Assembly (NCBI GenBank): GCA_019749945.1
Contig: JAIEPF010000016.1
Location: forward strand, 93,269-157,268
Length of the DNA: 64,000 nt
Source: Burkholderiales bacterium
GTDB lineage: Bacteria > Pseudomonadota > Gammaproteobacteria > Burkholderiales > SG8-41
Direction: 5' to 3'
Below the pieces are notes generated by a model that worked only from the letters and a program-made list of their open reading frames with translations, was not told where the DNA came from and made no database searches. Every line of letters begins with the position of its first letter. Position 1 is the stretch's first letter. Both the position numbers and the translations under genes were made by a program. Shown here piece after piece: positions 4,928-21,180 of the stretch.

Positions 4928-7495
4928 ATGAAAAAGCTGAGTTTCTGGAAGGCTGACTGGTTTATCGGACTCATTGTCGCCGTGATCATGCTGATCGCTG
5001 CGCGCGGTGACCTGATCCAGAGCCTGGAGCGCAAGGCCTACGACCTTGGTGTCCAGGCCGTCTCCCGCACGCCGTCCGACCGCATTGCCGTGATTGCCAT
5101 CGACGATGCCAGCATCGCCAATATCGGCCGCTGGCCCTGGTCGCGCGACGTCCACGCCCGCATGATTGACCTGCTTGCCGGCGCCAAAGCCAAGGTCATT
5201 GCCAATACCACGTTTTTTTTCGAACCCCAGCGCGATGCGGGGCTGGCGTATGTCGAAAAGCTGCTGAACCTGCACAATGAGCTGACCGCGCAGGGCGCAA
5301 CGGATCCCAAGGCGGCCGCGGTCGCCGACGGTCTGGCGCGGATCGGCGCGGTATTGACCGAAGCGGAGCAGGCGCTCAACACCGATCGCAAACTGGCCAG
5401 CAGCATGAAAACCGCCGGCAATGTGGTGCTGCCGCTGGTGTTCCAGCAGCTGACCGAACCCCAGGGCAATCCGGACAAGCCGCTGCCGGATTACGTGCAG
5501 GCGAGCGGCATGCCCGGCCCGCGCGGCGGGGACGCCTTACCGCCCCCGGGCGTGTTTCCCTTGTACCCGGTCGCCGAGCTGGGACCGGCAATTGCCGGCA
5601 TCGGGCACCTGAACGCCGATATCGACGTCGATGGCGCGGTGCGCGCCGAACCGCTGGTGGTGCGTCATTACGATCGCGTTTTTCCAGCGCTGTCGGTGGT
5701 GGTGGCGGCGCGCAGCCTGAACCTGGGTACGGCCGATATCAAACCGGCCTGGGGCGAGGCGCTGCAGATCGGCAAACTGCGGGTGCGCACGGATGCCGAG
5801 CTGCGCATGCATACCTTTTTTTATGCCGACCGCGACGGCCGCCCGGCATTCCCGGTGGACTCGTTTTTTGACGTGTTGAGCGGCAAGGTGCCGGCGGCCA
5901 AATACCAGGACAAGATCGTGCTGATCGGCGCCACTGCCGCCGGCCTCGGTTCGGCGCAGGTCACGCCGGTGTCACCGGCGACGGCACCGGTGCTGACCCT
6001 GGCGCATACGGTATCGAGCATACTCGGCGAACATTTTTTCGTGACGCCGTCCTGGGGCATCTGGGTGCAGATCGGCGTCTTTTTGCTTGTGGCCTTGTAC
6101 CTGATCCTGGTATTGCCGCGGCTGAAGGCCGGCATTGCGGCGCTGCTCAGCCTGGCGATCGGCGTGGCGCTGCTCGGTGCGCATTTCGGGCTGATGGTGA
6201 CGCAGCTGACCTGGATCCAGCTGATGGCATCGGTGGCCTTGCTGGCCGTGGGTTACGCCGCGCTGACCACCAAACGCTTCCTGGTCACCGAACGCGGCAA
6301 GGAAAAATCCGATGCCGAGTCCGCGGAATCCAACCGCATGCTGGGCATCGCCTACCAGGCCCAGGGCCAGCTTGATCTGGCCTGGGACAAGTTCCGCCAA
6401 TGCCCGCTCGCCGATCCGGTGATGGAAAACCTTTATGCGCTGGCGCTGGATTTCGAGCGCAAGCGGCAGTTCAACAAGGCGGAGTCGGTATTCCAGTACA
6501 TGGCGGAATTCAATCCGAAATTCCGCGATCTGGAGCAGCGGCTGACGCGGGCCAAGGCGCTGTCGGAAACGGTGATCCTCGGCGGCGCGCAAGGACATCC
6601 CGGCGGCACCATGATGCTGGCCGGTGGCGGCATGGAAAAACCGATGCTGGGCCGTTATCAGGTCGAGAAGGAACTCGGCAAGGGTGCGATGGGCGTGGTC
6701 TACCTCGGCAAGGATCCGAAGATCGGCCGCGTGGTGGCGATCAAGACCATGGCCCTGTCGCAGGAGTTCGAAGGCGATGAACTGGTCGAGGTCAAGGAGC
6801 GTTTTTTCCGCGAAGCGGAAACCGCGGGGCGCCTGACGCATCCCTGCATCGTCACCATTTACGATGCCGGCGAAGAACACGATCTGGCGTATATCGCGAT
6901 GGAATTTCTCAAGGGCCGCGATCTGGTGCCCTATACCAAGCCCGATGCGCTGCTGCCGGTGCCGCTGGTGCTGTCGATCATTGCCCGCGTCGCCGAGGCG
7001 CTGGGTTACGCCCACCAGCAGAACGTCGTGCATCGCGACATCAAGCCGGCGAACATCATGTATGAGCCGGAAAGCGATACCGCGAAAGTGACCGACTTCG
7101 GCATTGCCCGGGTCACCGACTCCTCCAAAACCAAGACCGGCATGGTGCTCGGCACGCCGTCCTACATGTCGCCCGAGCAGCTGGCCGGGAAAAAGGTGGA
7201 GGGACGCTCCGACCTGTTTTCGCTGGGTGTCACGCTCTACCAGATGTTGAGCGGCAAGCTGCCCTTCCAGGGCGAGTCCATGGCGCAACTGATGTTCAAG
7301 ATTGCCAACGAAGCACACCCCGACATCCGCACCCTGAAACCGGATCTGCCCGCCTGTGTGGCCGCAGTGACCAACAAGGCACTGGCGAAAGATCCCGACC
7401 AGCGCTACCAGAGCGGTGAACAGATGGCGAAAGCCATCCGGCTGTGCCTGGGCACGCTGGCAGCAAAACCCAAAGCCGACACCGCTGTATCCTGA
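4928..7495 (+). CDS. Membrane CHASE2-domain Hanks-type Ser/Thr protein kinase
   Basis: N-terminal TM, CHASE2 (IDDASIANIGRWPWSR; DVDGAVR; KIVLIGATAAG), 3 TMs, TPR-like segment, then kinase (LGKGAMGVVY, VAIK, HRDIKPAN, DFGIA, GTPSYMSPEQ). Confidence 0.95.
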   Translation: MKKLSFWKADWFIGLIVAVIMLIAARGDLIQSLERKAYDLGVQAVSRTPSDRIAVIAIDDASIANIGRWPWSRDVHARMIDLLAGAKAKVIANTTFFFEPQRDAGLAYVEKLLNLHNELTAQGATDPKAAAVADGLARIGAVLTEAEQALNTDRKLASSMKTAGNVVLPLVFQQLTEPQGNPDKPLPDYVQASGMPGPRGGDALPPPGVFPLYPVAELGPAIAGIGHLNADIDVDGAVRAEPLVVRHYDRVFPALSVVVAARSLNLGTADIKPAWGEALQIGKLRVRTDAELRMHTFFYADRDGRPAFPVDSFFDVLSGKVPAAKYQDKIVLIGATAAGLGSAQVTPVSPATAPVLTLAHTVSSILGEHFFVTPSWGIWVQIGVFLLVALYLILVLPRLKAGIAALLSLAIGVALLGAHFGLMVTQLTWIQLMASVALLAVGYAALTTKRFLVTERGKEKSDAESAESNRMLGIAYQAQGQLDLAWDKFRQCPLADPVMENLYALALDFERKRQFNKAESVFQYMAEFNPKFRDLEQRLTRAKALSETVILGGAQGHPGGTMMLAGGGMEKPMLGRYQVEKELGKGAMGVVYLGKDPKIGRVVAIKTMALSQEFEGDELVEVKERFFREAETAGRLTHPCIVTIYDAGEEHDLAYIAMEFLKGRDLVPYTKPDALLPVPLVLSIIARVAEALGYAHQQNVVHRDIKPANIMYEPESDTAKVTDFGIARVTDSSKTKTGMVLGTPSYMSPEQLAGKKVEGRSDLFSLGVTLYQMLSGKLPFQGESMAQLMFKIANEAHPDIRTLKPDLPACVAAVTNKALAKDPDQRYQSGEQMAKAIRLCLGTLAAKPKADTAVS

Positions 7496-7503
7496 GGCCC
7501 TGA

Positions 7504-8316
7504 ATGAACGATTTGTCCAACGCCATAGAAATCACGACCGCCACCCACCCGGGCATGGTGCGGTCGCATAACGAGGACAGCCTTTCTGCGGATGCTGCGG
7601 CCGGGCTTGCCGTGCTGGCCGACGGCATGGGCGGCTACAATGCCGGCGAGGTGGCCAGCGGCATAGCGGTGGCGATGATCAGCGCCGAACTGAAAAAGGC
7701 GCTGGCCGCAATCAACGGCGAACTCGATACGGCGACCGCGGAACGCCTGGTTGGCGAACATGCGGTGCGCGCCAACAATGCGATTTTCCAGGCCGCGCAG
7801 AACCAGTCGCAGTACGCCGGCATGGGCACCACGCTGGTCGTCGCGCTGTGGCACGACAACTCGCTGGTGGTCGGACATATCGGCGACTCGCGGCTCTACC
7901 GGTTCCGTAACAACAAACTTGAGCAGGTCACGCGCGACCATTCGCTGTTGCAGGAACAGATCGACAGCGGCCTGATCACCAAGGCGCAGGCCCGCCATTC
8001 GCAGAACAAGAATCTGGTGACGCGGGCGGTGGGCATCGACCCGGAAGTCGAGGCCGAAGTCCACAGCTACCCGGTGCAGGCCGGCGATATCTACCTGCTG
8101 TGTTCGGACGGCCTCAACGACATGGTGACGGATGAGGACATGGAGTTGACGCTGGCGTCGCTGCAGGCCAATCTGCCCCTGGCCGCCGCGCAACTGGTGC
8201 AGCAGGCGAACGACAATGGCGGGCGTGACAATGTTTCGGTTATTCTGGTGCGCGTGCTGAAGAGTTTCCCGGCCCGCGCTGGTTTGGTTGACCGGTTGAA
8301 GTCCTGGTTCAGATAA
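7504..8316 (+). CDS. PP2C-family Ser/Thr phosphatase (Stp1/PppA-like)
   Basis: RSHNED, ADGMGG, GMGTT, HIGDSR, TRDHS, LLCSDGL and GGRDN motifs. Confidence 0.95.
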   Translation: MNDLSNAIEITTATHPGMVRSHNEDSLSADAAAGLAVLADGMGGYNAGEVASGIAVAMISAELKKALAAINGELDTATAERLVGEHAVRANNAIFQAAQNQSQYAGMGTTLVVALWHDNSLVVGHIGDSRLYRFRNNKLEQVTRDHSLLQEQIDSGLITKAQARHSQNKNLVTRAVGIDPEVEAEVHSYPVQAGDIYLLCSDGLNDMVTDEDMELTLASLQANLPLAAAQLVQQANDNGGRDNVSVILVRVLKSFPARAGLVDRLKSWFR

Positions 8317-8333
8317 GCAACGGGGATACTACT

Positions 8334-20575: not shown

Positions 20576-20669
20576 CCCGTATCAGTTTGAACTTAAACCC
20601 GATGAAAAAAATAAATAAAAACAATAGTTTATGATCTTTTTGTGAGCCTGCTGCCAGGGTGCCTCCGGC

Positions 20670-20685
20670 TGGTACAGCTCTTGCT
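20670..20685 (+). promoter_or_regulatory. Sigma54 (-24/-12) promoter of pilin
   Basis: TGGTAC-AGCTC-TTGCT with exact GG-N10-GC spacing, 58 bp before the pilin ATG. Confidence 0.85.
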
Positions 20686-20742
20686 CAATAGCTGACGCGG
20701 GCAGCGACCTGCTTAACGTATTTCAATTTTTGGGAGCTACAT

Positions 20743-21180
20743 ATGAGAAACCTGCAAAAAGGCTTTACGCTGATCGAACTGATGATCGTCGTGGCGATTA
20801 TCGGTATCTTGGCGGCGATTGCGATTCCGCAGTATCAGGACTACATCACCCGTGCGAAGTGGCAGGACAACATCGCCCGCGTGCAATCCTGGAAAACGGC
20901 TGTCGCCGAGTGCCTGCAGAACAACGGTGGTGTGCCTTCCGAGTGCGACACCTCGGCCGAGGTAAGTTCAGCCACCGGCGCAGCTTTTCCGGGCGTAGGC
21001 GGCAACCTGTCCGCTATCGCATACGGCTTGGTCGGTGGCAATCTCACGATCAGCCTGGCGGGCACACCTTCAGTGAGTAACTGCTCGGTTGATGTTAGCG
21101 CCCAAGTATCGCCGACATCCGTGACCTGGGGTTATACCAACAGCGGTTGCACCAAGTCCAAAACCGGCGTGGGCACCTGA
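20743..21180 (+). CDS. pilA: Type IVa major pilin
   Basis: Class III signal [31 protein letters not shown] with E5; four Cys including a C-terminal pair; GGGAG SD; followed by a terminator. Confidence 0.93.

Follow-up and report, generated by a model that had tools for sequence, protein, structure and literature searches.

The question raised by this locus is whether an assembly ATPase of the PilB/GspE type that carries a GAF domain could be a type IVa pilus (T4aP) extension motor gated by cyclic AMP (cAMP). The locus lies in a window of 64,000 nucleotides, the whole stretch of DNA that was analysed, from the genome of a Burkholderiales bacterium (GenBank assembly GCA_019749945.1, contig JAIEPF010000016.1, positions 93,269 to 157,268 of the forward strand). 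The GAF-ATPase is encoded in a seven-gene signalling cassette with a pilin gene downstream. It is most likely a cAMP-gated T4aP extension motor that is co-regulated with a cyclic-dinucleotide phosphodiesterase and has a putative phospho-threonine input, and this reading is given a probability of roughly 0.55. The genes on which it turns are as follows.

4928..7495, plus strand: CHASE2 receptor Ser/Thr kinase, 855 aa (Pfam CHASE2 3.4e-51, Pkinase 3.6e-53)
7504..8316, plus strand: PP2C-type Ser/Thr phosphatase, 270 aa (Pfam PP2C_2)
8334..9143, plus strand: FHA protein, 269 aa (Pfam FHA 1.1e-20; GR, S-x-x-H and NG motifs)
9269..11506, plus strand: predicted CHASE2 receptor class III adenylate cyclase, 745 aa (Pfam CHASE2 1.3e-57, Guanylate_cyc 6.6e-20)
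11506..12273, plus strand: putative class-II-like cyclic-nucleotide phosphodiesterase of the metallo-beta-lactamase fold, 255 aa (Pfam Lactamase_B_2, PDEase_II 2.4e-15)
12332..14716, plus strand: GAF-N1(MshEN-like)-PilB/GspE-type ATPase, 794 aa from a GTG (Pfam GAF, MshEN 8.3e-13, T2SSE 2.4e-113)
14742..16361, plus strand: predicted GAF-HD-GYP cyclic-dinucleotide phosphodiesterase, 539 aa (Pfam GAF, HD/HD_5)
20743..21180, plus strand: type IVa prepilin, 145 aa (N_methyl 1.2e-10, Pilin 8.1e-5)

The original prediction, which was made from the letters of the DNA, had described seven co-directional signalling genes upstream of the pilin. Pfam and a reading of the motifs agree with this: the seven genes at 4928-16361 share the plus strand, all of the stated domains were recovered and the catalytic motifs are intact in every enzyme. 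A neighbourhood survey had been set beforehand as a test of co-conservation. Relatives were collected by scanning one genome per species, which gave 80 loci with full-length ATPase relatives (63-93% identity). Nearly all of these are labelled betaproteobacterial; two are labelled only as Gammaproteobacteria or Pseudomonadota. Gene order was surveyed by domain-wise tblastn at those 49 loci whose sequence extends 9.5 kb or more upstream and 1.8 kb or more downstream of the ATPase. The patterns are coded S for kinase, P for PP2C, F for FHA, A for cyclase, D for phosphodiesterase, E for ATPase and H for HD-GYP, with a dash for a missing gene.

SPFADEH (seven genes, in order): 29 of 49 loci
-PF-DEH: 5 of 49 loci
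---ADEH: 4 of 49 loci
-PFADEH: 3 of 49 loci
----DEH: 2 of 49 loci
----DE-: 2 of 49 loci
four further patterns: 1 of 49 loci each

Since 29 of the 49 related loci hold all seven genes in order, the string is much beyond chance, and the predicted co-conservation passed its test. The phosphodiesterase, ATPase and HD-GYP genes occur together, with or without the other genes, in 44 of 49 loci and are the constant core of the cassette. The block is a conserved betaproteobacterial signalling cassette. The GAF and N1 half of the ATPase was matched at E <= 1e-30 in 191 of 401 genomes sampled across the order (188 of 398 without the unpublished genomes G205, G294 and G379) and in 70 of 167 genera. In a phylum-wide sample it was matched in 38 of 401 genomes, and matches from outside the order have merely 24-30% identity. 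At two distant out-of-order loci that were annotated, a GAF-MshEN-T2SSE ATPase gene adjoins a GAF-HD-GYP gene in both and a CHASE2 protein is present in one; therefore the pairing of ATPase and HD-GYP appears to be old.

The layout of the cassette fits a single operon because the first gaps are 8 and 17 bp and there is one upstream terminator and one upstream promoter. The other intergenic gaps are 125, 58 and 25 bp, and the cyclase and phosphodiesterase genes overlap. The terminator-like hairpin (4643..4666, plus strand; a stem of 10 pairs, 7 of them G-C, followed by a T run) ends an upstream formyltransferase-like gene and forms the 5' border of the cassette. The sigma-70-like promoter candidate (4808..4836, plus strand, upstream of the kinase gene) reads TTGGCA-17-CATAAT and is a consensus match only, with 10 of 12 positions matched. 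A scan of the block found no strong hairpin within the cassette. In public reads, the matches to 7400-16400 of the window are contigs of DNA metagenomes from drinking water, biofilm and freshwater, with no RNA run listed.

The GAF-ATPase belongs to the PilB/GspE-type assembly ATPases of the T2SSE superfamily, whose marks are Walker A, an Asp box/Walker B, a His box, a tetracysteine zinc site and an N1 (GSPII/MshEN-like) domain. The Walker A motif GPTGSGKT, the DIIMVGEMRD and GHLVFATLHTN motifs and four Cys (CGKC...CEVC) are invariant in 55 sequences. The best solved match of the core is M. xanthus PilB (3JC8, 3.6e-107), and its best solved relatives are PilB and PilF. The true start of the protein is likely the ATG at 12338, because M3 is invariant. 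The c-di-GMP (cyclic di-GMP) motif of MshEN domains is described in the text of Wang et al. as a tandem 24-residue RLGxx(L/V/I)(L/V/I)xxG(L/V/I)(L/V/I)xxxxLxxxLxxQ (PMC5013675). This motif, in strict or relaxed form, was found in 0 of 80 members of the GAF-ATPase family; an ATPase on contig C29 of the same genome served as a positive control and holds both copies. Therefore, gating of this motor by c-di-GMP in the known way, which the original prediction had cited as common among PilB/MshE motors, is not borne out. The simplest reading is that the motor family exchanged c-di-GMP sensing for cyclic-nucleotide sensing, with cAMP the most likely ligand.

The link to T4aP comes from gene neighbourhoods and from co-occurrence. 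A prepilin gene directly follows the HD-GYP gene in 24 of 58 loci with at least 3 kb of flank, and of the 40 loci whose flank reaches 9 kb or more, 27 have a plus-strand prepilin gene somewhere within it. PilT-family ATPases are present in 352 of the 401 sampled genomes. All 191 genomes with the GAF-ATPase also have PilT, and none of the 49 genomes without PilT has the GAF-ATPase; these counts take in the unpublished genomes G026, G205, G294 and G379. A naive Fisher test of this co-occurrence gives p = 1e-15, which overstates the case since the genomes are related and not independent. Joint loss is seen in two families: in f4 the GAF gene is present in 5 of 10 genomes and PilT in 6 of 10, and in f20 an identical set of 8 of 9 genomes holds both. 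The proposed linkage to a pilin was thus upheld, with the cassette linked to a type IVa pilin gene in many genomes and to genomes that bear T4aP.

The genome of the window encodes four long GspE/PilB-type ATPases and three platform proteins, distributed as follows.

Contigs C35 and C29: ATPase beside platform and pseudopilin genes; MshE-type c-di-GMP motif domain
Contig C36: pilC-pilD, with a CNNM transporter at the expected place of pilB and no adjoining ATPase
Contig C37: orphan ATPase passing the NCBIfam TfpB equivalog (900 bits, cut-off 850)
Contig C34 (the window): GAF-ATPase

The ATPase of contig C37 lies at G000:C37:236635-238629 (L091:6636-8630, minus strand) and is flanked by proteins of 423 and 218 aa without a Pfam family. 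Motors of the TfpB type seem to be common in Betaproteobacteria, being present in 4 of 5 complete genomes checked.

A further case for a motor comes from genus g23. Each of four complete or near-complete genomes examined has only two long PilB/GspE-type ATPases, namely the GAF-ATPase and one beside a platform gene. Each also has a second, PilC-type platform without an adjoining ATPase, one PilM, and PilT/PilU. In genome G019, the sole g23 genome whose neighbourhoods were annotated, the pair of non-GAF ATPase and platform lies in a cluster with a GspG-type pseudopilin, a PilN-like protein and a secretin; PilD follows the orphan PilC, and no ATPase of this genome reaches the TfpB cut-off. Since the other long ATPase has its own platform, the GAF-ATPase would be, by elimination, the only candidate extension motor for the orphan T4aP machinery of g23.

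A maximum-likelihood tree of 26 ATPase cores, taken from five genomes and the distant loci, places the GAF-ATPases in a clade of their own (100/100), apart from the PilC-adjacent, TfpB, Msh-like and T2SS-like (type II secretion) ATPase clades. The possibility that the GAF-ATPase is the genome's relocated pilB was considered and rejected as a general explanation: genomes G034, G048 and G371 keep a PilC-adjacent ATPase and TfpB, and the GAF clade is separate. Because the GAF-ATPase coexists with these two, it would be an additional motor class and not a displaced pilB. A further member of the GAF-ATPase group was seen in genome G025 (C1:472154-473794, L108; second copy, long-branched, 795 aa, 52% core identity). 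Its placement next to the betaproteobacterial clade has weak support (85/81), and the members from outside the order lie outside the two.

A bolder form of the motor reading is possible, although it is held only tentatively. According to this form, the GAF-ATPases would be an ancient class of type IV filament motor in their own right, equal in rank to PilB, TfpB, MshE and GspE, in which direct cAMP sensing has taken the place of c-di-GMP sensing. In some lineages, here g23, the class would have taken over from PilB as the sole T4aP extension motor. The FHA protein would be a GarA-like phospho-switch, with threonine 109 (T109) as its site, by which the CHASE2 kinase sets the engagement of the motor. 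Two periplasmic cues would then meet at the motor, and not at the level of transcription.

It is unlikely that the GAF-ATPase is not a pilus motor at all, and that it serves another process or acts as a signalling NTPase which lies near pilA through a shared surface-behaviour regulon. The gene is always an orphan, with no adjoining platform, PilM or secretin gene in the loci examined, and a pilin gene directly follows in fewer than half of the loci (the 24 of 58 given above). The clade is as distant from PilB as are the TfpB, Msh-type and T2SS-type ATPases, and its members stay below all NCBIfam equivalog cut-offs; for the canonical T4aP PilB model (TIGR02538) the window protein scores 487.3 bits against a cut-off of 675.65. 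However, the PilB-type catalytic core is complete and is conserved together with the zinc site and the N1 domain, the gene never occurs in a sampled genome without PilT, and the orphan PilC/PilM/PilT machinery of g23 has no other extension ATPase. An orphan extension motor also has a precedent in TfpB, as described in the text of PMC8213720.

The next question is what the motor would read. The GAF domain of the ATPase has its best match in the cAMP-binding GAF tandem of Anabaena CyaB2 (1YKD, 2.1e-28). PDE2A follows at 7.3e-12, then PDE6 and PDE10, so that CyaB2 leads by 16 orders of magnitude in E-value. The D-x-x-TGYRT block of this domain is invariant in the family alignments. The GAF domain of the HD-GYP enzyme matches PDE5 (2.1e-19), CyaB2 (1YKD, 7.2e-14) and the PmGH GAF. 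By their sequence, both domains belong to the cyclic-nucleotide-binding clade of GAF domains, and the two GAF-domain effectors named in the original prediction were confirmed to this extent.

The cassette also appears to encode the source and the sink of the ligand. Class III cyclases have two metal-binding Asp, a substrate-defining Lys plus Asp/Thr, and a transition-state Asn and Arg. The cyclase of the window has the full adenylate-type set: D494, K535, D539 and T609 show no change in any of the family members (56 of 56), and N616 and R620 are at least 95% conserved. The pair Lys535/Thr609 is characteristic of adenylate cyclases of class IIIb. The stop codon of the cyclase gene and the start codon of the phosphodiesterase gene share one base (TAATG). 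Both the adenylate cyclase and its coupling to a phosphodiesterase had been proposed before, and both hold on these residues and this overlap. The phosphodiesterase family keeps both HSHLDH and FNW..WPDF, a class-II block, across 71 sequences. The best solved relative is yeast PDE1 (4OJV, 4.9e-8), and the NCBIfam model for cyclic-nucleotide-degrading phosphodiesterases scores 42.7 bits against a cut-off of 400. Because the likeness to yeast PDE1, like that to Pfam PDEase_II, is confined to residues 45-103, identity as a class II phosphodiesterase is likely, not secure.

Further predicted cyclic-nucleotide receptors are encoded near the cassette.

31916..33259, plus strand: Ser/Thr kinase fused to a C-terminal cyclic-nucleotide-binding domain, 447 aa (Pkinase 1.5e-53, cNMP_binding 2.2e-15)
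1556..2164, minus strand: small Crp/Fnr-like protein, 202 aa (cNMP_binding 3.1e-8, weak HTH_Crp_2 0.0012)

The fusion resembles a single-chain PKA and lies 3' of a gene for an M48 peptidase-TPR protein (29936-31849, plus strand). The same pair was found again 6-11 kb downstream of the ATPase in loci L007, L008, L029, L042 and L056. It is a loosely linked extra cAMP receptor by prediction, and could connect cAMP to Thr phosphorylation. L050, L076 and L078 also have the Crp/Fnr-like gene on this flank of the cassette. In 30 of 71 loci having the upstream phosphodiesterase, an extra gene stands between the phosphodiesterase and the ATPase. In the three copies scanned (L052:8887-9987, L043:8758-9822 and L038:8892-9953) it encodes a cNMP_binding plus rhodanese protein of about 360 aa, which is predicted to be a further cAMP receptor with a sulfurtransferase-like output; it is missing from the window. 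With the fusion, the Crp-like protein and the rhodanese gene of relatives so close, the circuit is not the self-contained one that had been proposed.

It is improbable that the GAF domains bind cGMP or a non-nucleotide ligand, with cAMP read instead by the rhodanese protein, the kinase fusion and the Crp-like regulators. The GAF domains of the cGMP-binding enzymes PDE2, PDE5 and PDE6 are among the best matches for both domains, CAP-type receptors are encoded in or near the cassette, and the PmGH GAF is without an assigned ligand in the text of a bioRxiv survey of HD-GYP proteins. Nevertheless, the top match of the ATPase domain binds cAMP and leads by the margin given above, the sole cyclase of the cassette has the adenylate-type Lys and Thr, and a cAMP-activated GAF-HD-GYP enzyme is already known by description. 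The core of phosphodiesterase, ATPase and HD-GYP also persists without an adjacent CAP-type receptor.

In the cAMP-gated motor reading, the HD-GYP enzyme is the second effector. It carries the HD and HHE..GYP motifs of an HD-GYP cyclic-dinucleotide phosphodiesterase, with LLHDCGK and GGHHERMDGKGYP kept across 74 sequences. Among solved structures (5Z7C, 4MCW and 4R8Z), the catalytic part is closest to 5Z7C, the 3'3'-cGAMP-specific (cyclic GMP-AMP) enzyme V-cGAP3 (2.7e-22), followed by two enzymes that act on c-di-GMP, PmGH (4MCW, 1.5e-14) and PA4781 (2.7e-9). Because the cGAMP-specific enzyme outscores those for c-di-GMP, the substrate may be either c-di-GMP or cGAMP. The breakdown of c-di-GMP, as first proposed, was therefore a mere assumption.

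The phospho-threonine branch consists of the kinase, the PP2C and the FHA protein. The VAIK, HRDIKPAN, DFG and SPE motifs of the kinase are conserved in 35 family members. The phosphatase passes the NCBIfam Stp1/IreP equivalog (247.1 bits, cut-off 230) and has the DGMGG, SDGL and GGRDN motifs. The FHA protein begins with a canonical FHA domain, which is followed by DFEKT(109)MVLR, a variable linker rich in Pro and Ala and, at the C-terminus, a conserved FHA-like domain. This last domain has a degenerate FHA look by eye and a weak match to Yop-YscD_cpl (0.0032). T109 is invariant in 55 of 55 sequences and has a Leu at +3. In GarA and OdhI, a phospho-site beside the FHA domain is recognised by that same domain. 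Because an invariant Thr with Leu at +3 adjoins the FHA domain, the analogy suggests that T109 may be a self-recognised phospho-site of the GarA/OdhI kind. In one relative, L030:5023-6261, the FHA gene reads as frame-shifted after the first domain and has a long aberrant C-terminus, probably from an assembly error or as a broken gene.

The target of this branch was sought in the ATPase. One candidate for binding by the FHA protein was an acidic linker at residues 340-375, where this genome has TxxD motifs; it was rejected, as its Thr positions are unconserved in 80 sequences. A complex prediction for residues 1-370 of the ATPase with the whole FHA protein (55-row alignments each) scored 0.00 against a mark of 0.32; it was run without controls and speaks neither for nor against binding. 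The convergence of Thr phosphorylation on pilus assembly that had been envisaged is unsupported.

The trio stays with the core in most loci. Its likeness to the PpkA/PppA/Fha1 pathway of type VI secretion (T6SS) does not extend to membership. There is no T6SS family among the window open reading frames scanned, as the original prediction had also stated for the window. A T6SS role is unlikely because TssC was not found in the genome, which is 95.8% complete. The least probable of the alternatives is that the trio is an independent module, of T6SS or cell-envelope type, which merely travels with the cAMP module: it is favoured by the variants that lack the trio (---ADEH in 4, ----DEH in 2 and ----DE- in 2 of the 49 loci), by the likeness of the FHA domain to the NCBIfam TagH, OdhI and FhaB models (all below cut-off) and by the missing link to the ATPase, but is opposed by the failure to find TssC/VipB, by the fixed position and order of the trio in 29 of 49 loci, by the 5 of 49 loci in which PP2C and FHA stay with a core that lacks kinase and cyclase, and by the short gaps and single upstream terminator and promoter that fit one operon.

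Several points weigh against a cAMP-gated pilus motor with these inputs. The protein falls under the NCBIfam cut-offs for the PilB and GspE equivalogs, and no platform, PilM or secretin gene was found beside it in the loci examined. The deep order of the tree is unsettled (47/25) for the GAF clade relative to PilB and TfpB, which leaves orthology with a pilus motor unsupported. PilT is so common (352 of 401 genomes), and the genomes so closely akin, that the co-occurrence is weaker than the naive p suggests. The TfpB-equivalog ATPase of the window's own genome could serve PilC alone. In G034, G048 and G371, where PilB is beside PilC and both TfpB and the GAF-ATPase are present, a role as sole motor is dispensable. 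At least one of the seven genes is absent in 20 of 49 loci. The cGMP-binding GAF domains score nearly as well as that of CyaB2, and sequence gives no certain specificity for a GAF ligand; the best solved catalytic relative of the HD-GYP domain is specific for cGAMP; and the acidic linker of the ATPase is without a conserved Thr.

The pilin gene was expected to be controlled by CRP. Its product has the features of a type IVa pilin, namely a class III signal peptide, a Pilin domain and, for the disulphide loop, Cys113/Cys136 near the C-terminus. A second PilA-like gene is on contig C39 of the same genome, and a G+C hairpin with a T run, read by eye, follows the pilin gene at about 21209-21231. 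Three elements were found upstream of the gene.

20467..20481, no strand assigned: TGAC-N7-GTCA dyad TGACAGGTTTTGTCA, starting at the stop codon of a TPR gene, 203 nt upstream of the sigma-54 promoter
20560..20575, no strand assigned: CRP-type palindrome TGTGAGTGATGTCACA (TGTGA-N6-TCACA), midway between the dyad and the sigma-54 promoter
20670..20685, plus strand: sigma-54-type promoter TGGTAC-N5-TTGCT, 58 nt upstream of the pilin ATG

Of the 24 pilin genes located directly after HD-GYP in relatives, 21 are preceded by the sigma-54 element, which is also a conserved block in the alignment of the window with loci L001 and L002. A set of 35 sigma-54 pilin promoters was aligned on the promoter element and the 260 nt upstream were scanned. 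The dyad is exact in 23 of the 35 and has at most one mismatch in 32 of 35, against a background of 0.010 exact matches per 260 nt. It is also an invariant block in the alignment with L001 and L002. The activator of the sigma-54 promoter, which may be PilR-like, most likely binds at the dyad.

The perfect CRP box that had been reported upstream of the pilin is present, and it is the sole perfect match in the window. Control by CRP does not follow from it, since the promoter is of the sigma-54 type, only the two closest relatives share the box and perfect boxes are at chance level genome-wide. The box is one of 2 in the 3.59-Mb genome, where 1.55 are expected from base composition, and scrambled control palindromes have 0 to 8 genome copies. 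L001 and L002 have a box with one mismatch at the same position. At the remaining loci scanned, the 350 nt before the pilin gene hold no CRP-type box within one mismatch. The half-sites in L001 and L002 are kept while the spacer and flanks vary, which argues for a function of the box in this genus. The box lies about 104 bp upstream of the -24 element, and its distance from the promoter, 110-112 nt, is the same in L001 and L002; this position would suit a DNA-bending protein, not contact of CRP with sigma-70 polymerase. The pilin promoter is therefore not counted among CRP/Vfr-regulated promoters, and the box may be at most a lineage-specific extra layer of control. A conserved AT-rich block at 20590-20640 lies between the box and the sigma-54 promoter. 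Within this block, L001 and L002 have the sequence AATCAA-N4-GTTA, which resembles an IHF site.

The 202-aa Crp-like protein (1556-2164) is a doubtful candidate for the reader of the box, since its helix reads PETLSR, presumably of the FNR type rather than the CRP type. A CRP-type helix, SREMVSR, is present instead in a CRP-like regulator on contig C26, for which CRP is the best NCBIfam match (151.6 bits, cut-off 266).

Other genes lie between and beyond the cassette and the pilin.

16377..16694, minus strand: small Lys-rich conserved gene, about 105 aa, convergent with the HD-GYP gene; no Pfam family
16665-18593 and 18706-20469, plus strand: two TPR proteins (Pfam TPR) whose C-terminal domains are without a family
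21230-23023, minus strand: TPR protein, candidate pilin glycosylation gene
23239-24729, plus strand: Wzy_C O-antigen-ligase-like membrane protein, candidate pilin glycosylation gene
24788-27250, plus strand: TPR-GT41 glycosyltransferase, candidate pilin glycosylation gene

In the window, the small minus-strand gene and the two TPR genes are inserted between HD-GYP and the pilin; for the TPR genes this insertion belongs to the lineage. The C-terminal 105 residues of the open reading frame 16377-16994 (minus strand) match 19 of 80 related loci, usually right after HD-GYP or near the pilin. The second TPR protein has a faint C-terminal match to Glyco_transf_9. A pilin gene is paired with Wzy_C again in L001, L002, L007, L008, L013, L057 and L063. 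The genes at 21230-27250 suggest O-glycosylation of the pilin, presumably of the TfpO/PilO kind. Two cytochrome c genes, one of them for a dihaem protein of the SoxA/TsdA type, separate the pilin island from the M48/kinase pair (27364-28821, minus strand); L002 has both of them downstream as well.

A mechanism can be proposed for the cAMP-gated motor. The CHASE2 receptor cyclase would make cAMP in response to a periplasmic cue. The cAMP would bind the GAF domain of the ATPase, which would stand in for the N-terminal c-di-GMP-binding function, and the bound domain may switch motor activity or docking on the orphan PilC/PilM platform. The same cAMP would bind the paralogous GAF domain of the HD-GYP enzyme, which may then lower c-di-GMP or 3'3'-cGAMP. 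The coupled class-II-like phosphodiesterase would reset cAMP. The second CHASE2 receptor, the kinase, and the PP2C would set the phosphorylation of a threonine, the best candidate being T109 of the FHA protein, so that the FHA protein could act on a partner as a phospho-switch like GarA/OdhI. The pilin would be transcribed from the sigma-54 promoter with the TGAC-N7-GTCA dyad as enhancer. In this genus only, the CRP-type box may contribute an architectural input that depends on cAMP.

Bacteria rely on type IV pili for twitching, surface sensing, DNA uptake and entry into biofilms, and the extension motors of these pili are tuned by c-di-GMP and by partner proteins. To our knowledge, effects of cAMP on pili are known only through transcription factors. 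If the proposal is true, a motor with its own sensor for cAMP would give pili a new control point. Among the groups with the GAF-ATPase are nitrifiers, oxidisers of iron and sulfur, and wastewater bacteria. The cassette would be a compact case of cross-talk among cAMP, cyclic dinucleotides and Ser/Thr phosphorylation, and the genomes in which the GAF-ATPase is the only candidate motor allow a clean genetic test.

The literature search found no published functional description of this combination, as the original prediction had supposed. The word GAF has 0 mentions in the text of a 2024 review of PilB regulation (PMC11656802) and in the main text of PMC5013675. The nearest known system is MshE of V. 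cholerae and its relatives, which the text of Wang et al. (2016, PMC5013675) describes as extension ATPases gated by c-di-GMP through an MshEN domain. The GAF-ATPase shares the hexameric core of the PilB/GspE family and an N-terminal region predicted to read a nucleotide second messenger, and by Pfam it keeps an MshEN-like N1 domain. It differs in that the tandem motif is absent, a cyclic-nucleotide-type GAF domain precedes N1, the clade is its own and machinery genes do not adjoin.

The T4aP of A. baylyi has two extension motors, PilB and the orphan TfpB, which is encoded away from pilC and was shown by experiment to be a second motor, according to the text of Ellison et al. (2021, PMC8213720). 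The GAF-ATPase is likewise an orphan PilB homologue away from pilC, and the genome of the window, which has a TfpB equivalog as well, would also have several motors per platform. As far as TfpB is described in that text, it has no GAF domain or dedicated second-messenger genes, and the GAF-ATPase clade is separate. In g23, neither PilB nor TfpB was found, which leaves only the GAF-ATPase.

Tlr0485 of Thermosynechococcus vulcanus is a cAMP-activated GAF-HD-GYP c-di-GMP phosphodiesterase (Enomoto et al. 2020, as cited in PMC10124867 and in the bioRxiv HD-GYP survey). By this description, the enzyme of the window shares the architecture, and it has a cyclic-nucleotide-type GAF domain and a complete HD...HHE...GYP site. 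It differs from Tlr0485, again as described, in being encoded with its own cyclase, phosphodiesterase and GAF-ATPase; its HD-GYP domain has an insert of about 80 residues and its best relative is the cGAMP-specific 5Z7C.

In P. aeruginosa, the Pil-Chp/CyaB-cAMP-Vfr pathway controls type IV pili through transcription, as summarised in the text of the review PMC11656802. A membrane class III cyclase and cAMP would be common to both systems, and the genus of the window has a CRP/Vfr-type box upstream of the pilin and a CRP-like regulator. However, the predicted receptors in the window are GAF domains on a motor and a phosphodiesterase, the pilin promoter is of the sigma-54 type and CRP boxes are not enriched.

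Switches based on FHA domains and Thr phosphorylation are known from PpkA/PppA/Fha1 of the P. aeruginosa H1-T6SS and from GarA/OdhI of actinobacteria. As in the former, the gene for an FHA protein stands beside those for a Hanks kinase and a PP2C phosphatase; unlike there, no T6SS was found, the kinase has a CHASE2 sensor and the FHA protein has a second, degenerate FHA-like domain. Singly, c-di-GMP gating through MshEN, several extension motors for one pilus, control by cAMP through Vfr/CRP and a cAMP-activated HD-GYP enzyme are already known. What is apparently new to print is a PilB-family motor with a cyclic-nucleotide-type GAF domain, encoded together with a cyclase, a phosphodiesterase, a GAF-HD-GYP enzyme and a kinase/PP2C/FHA trio.

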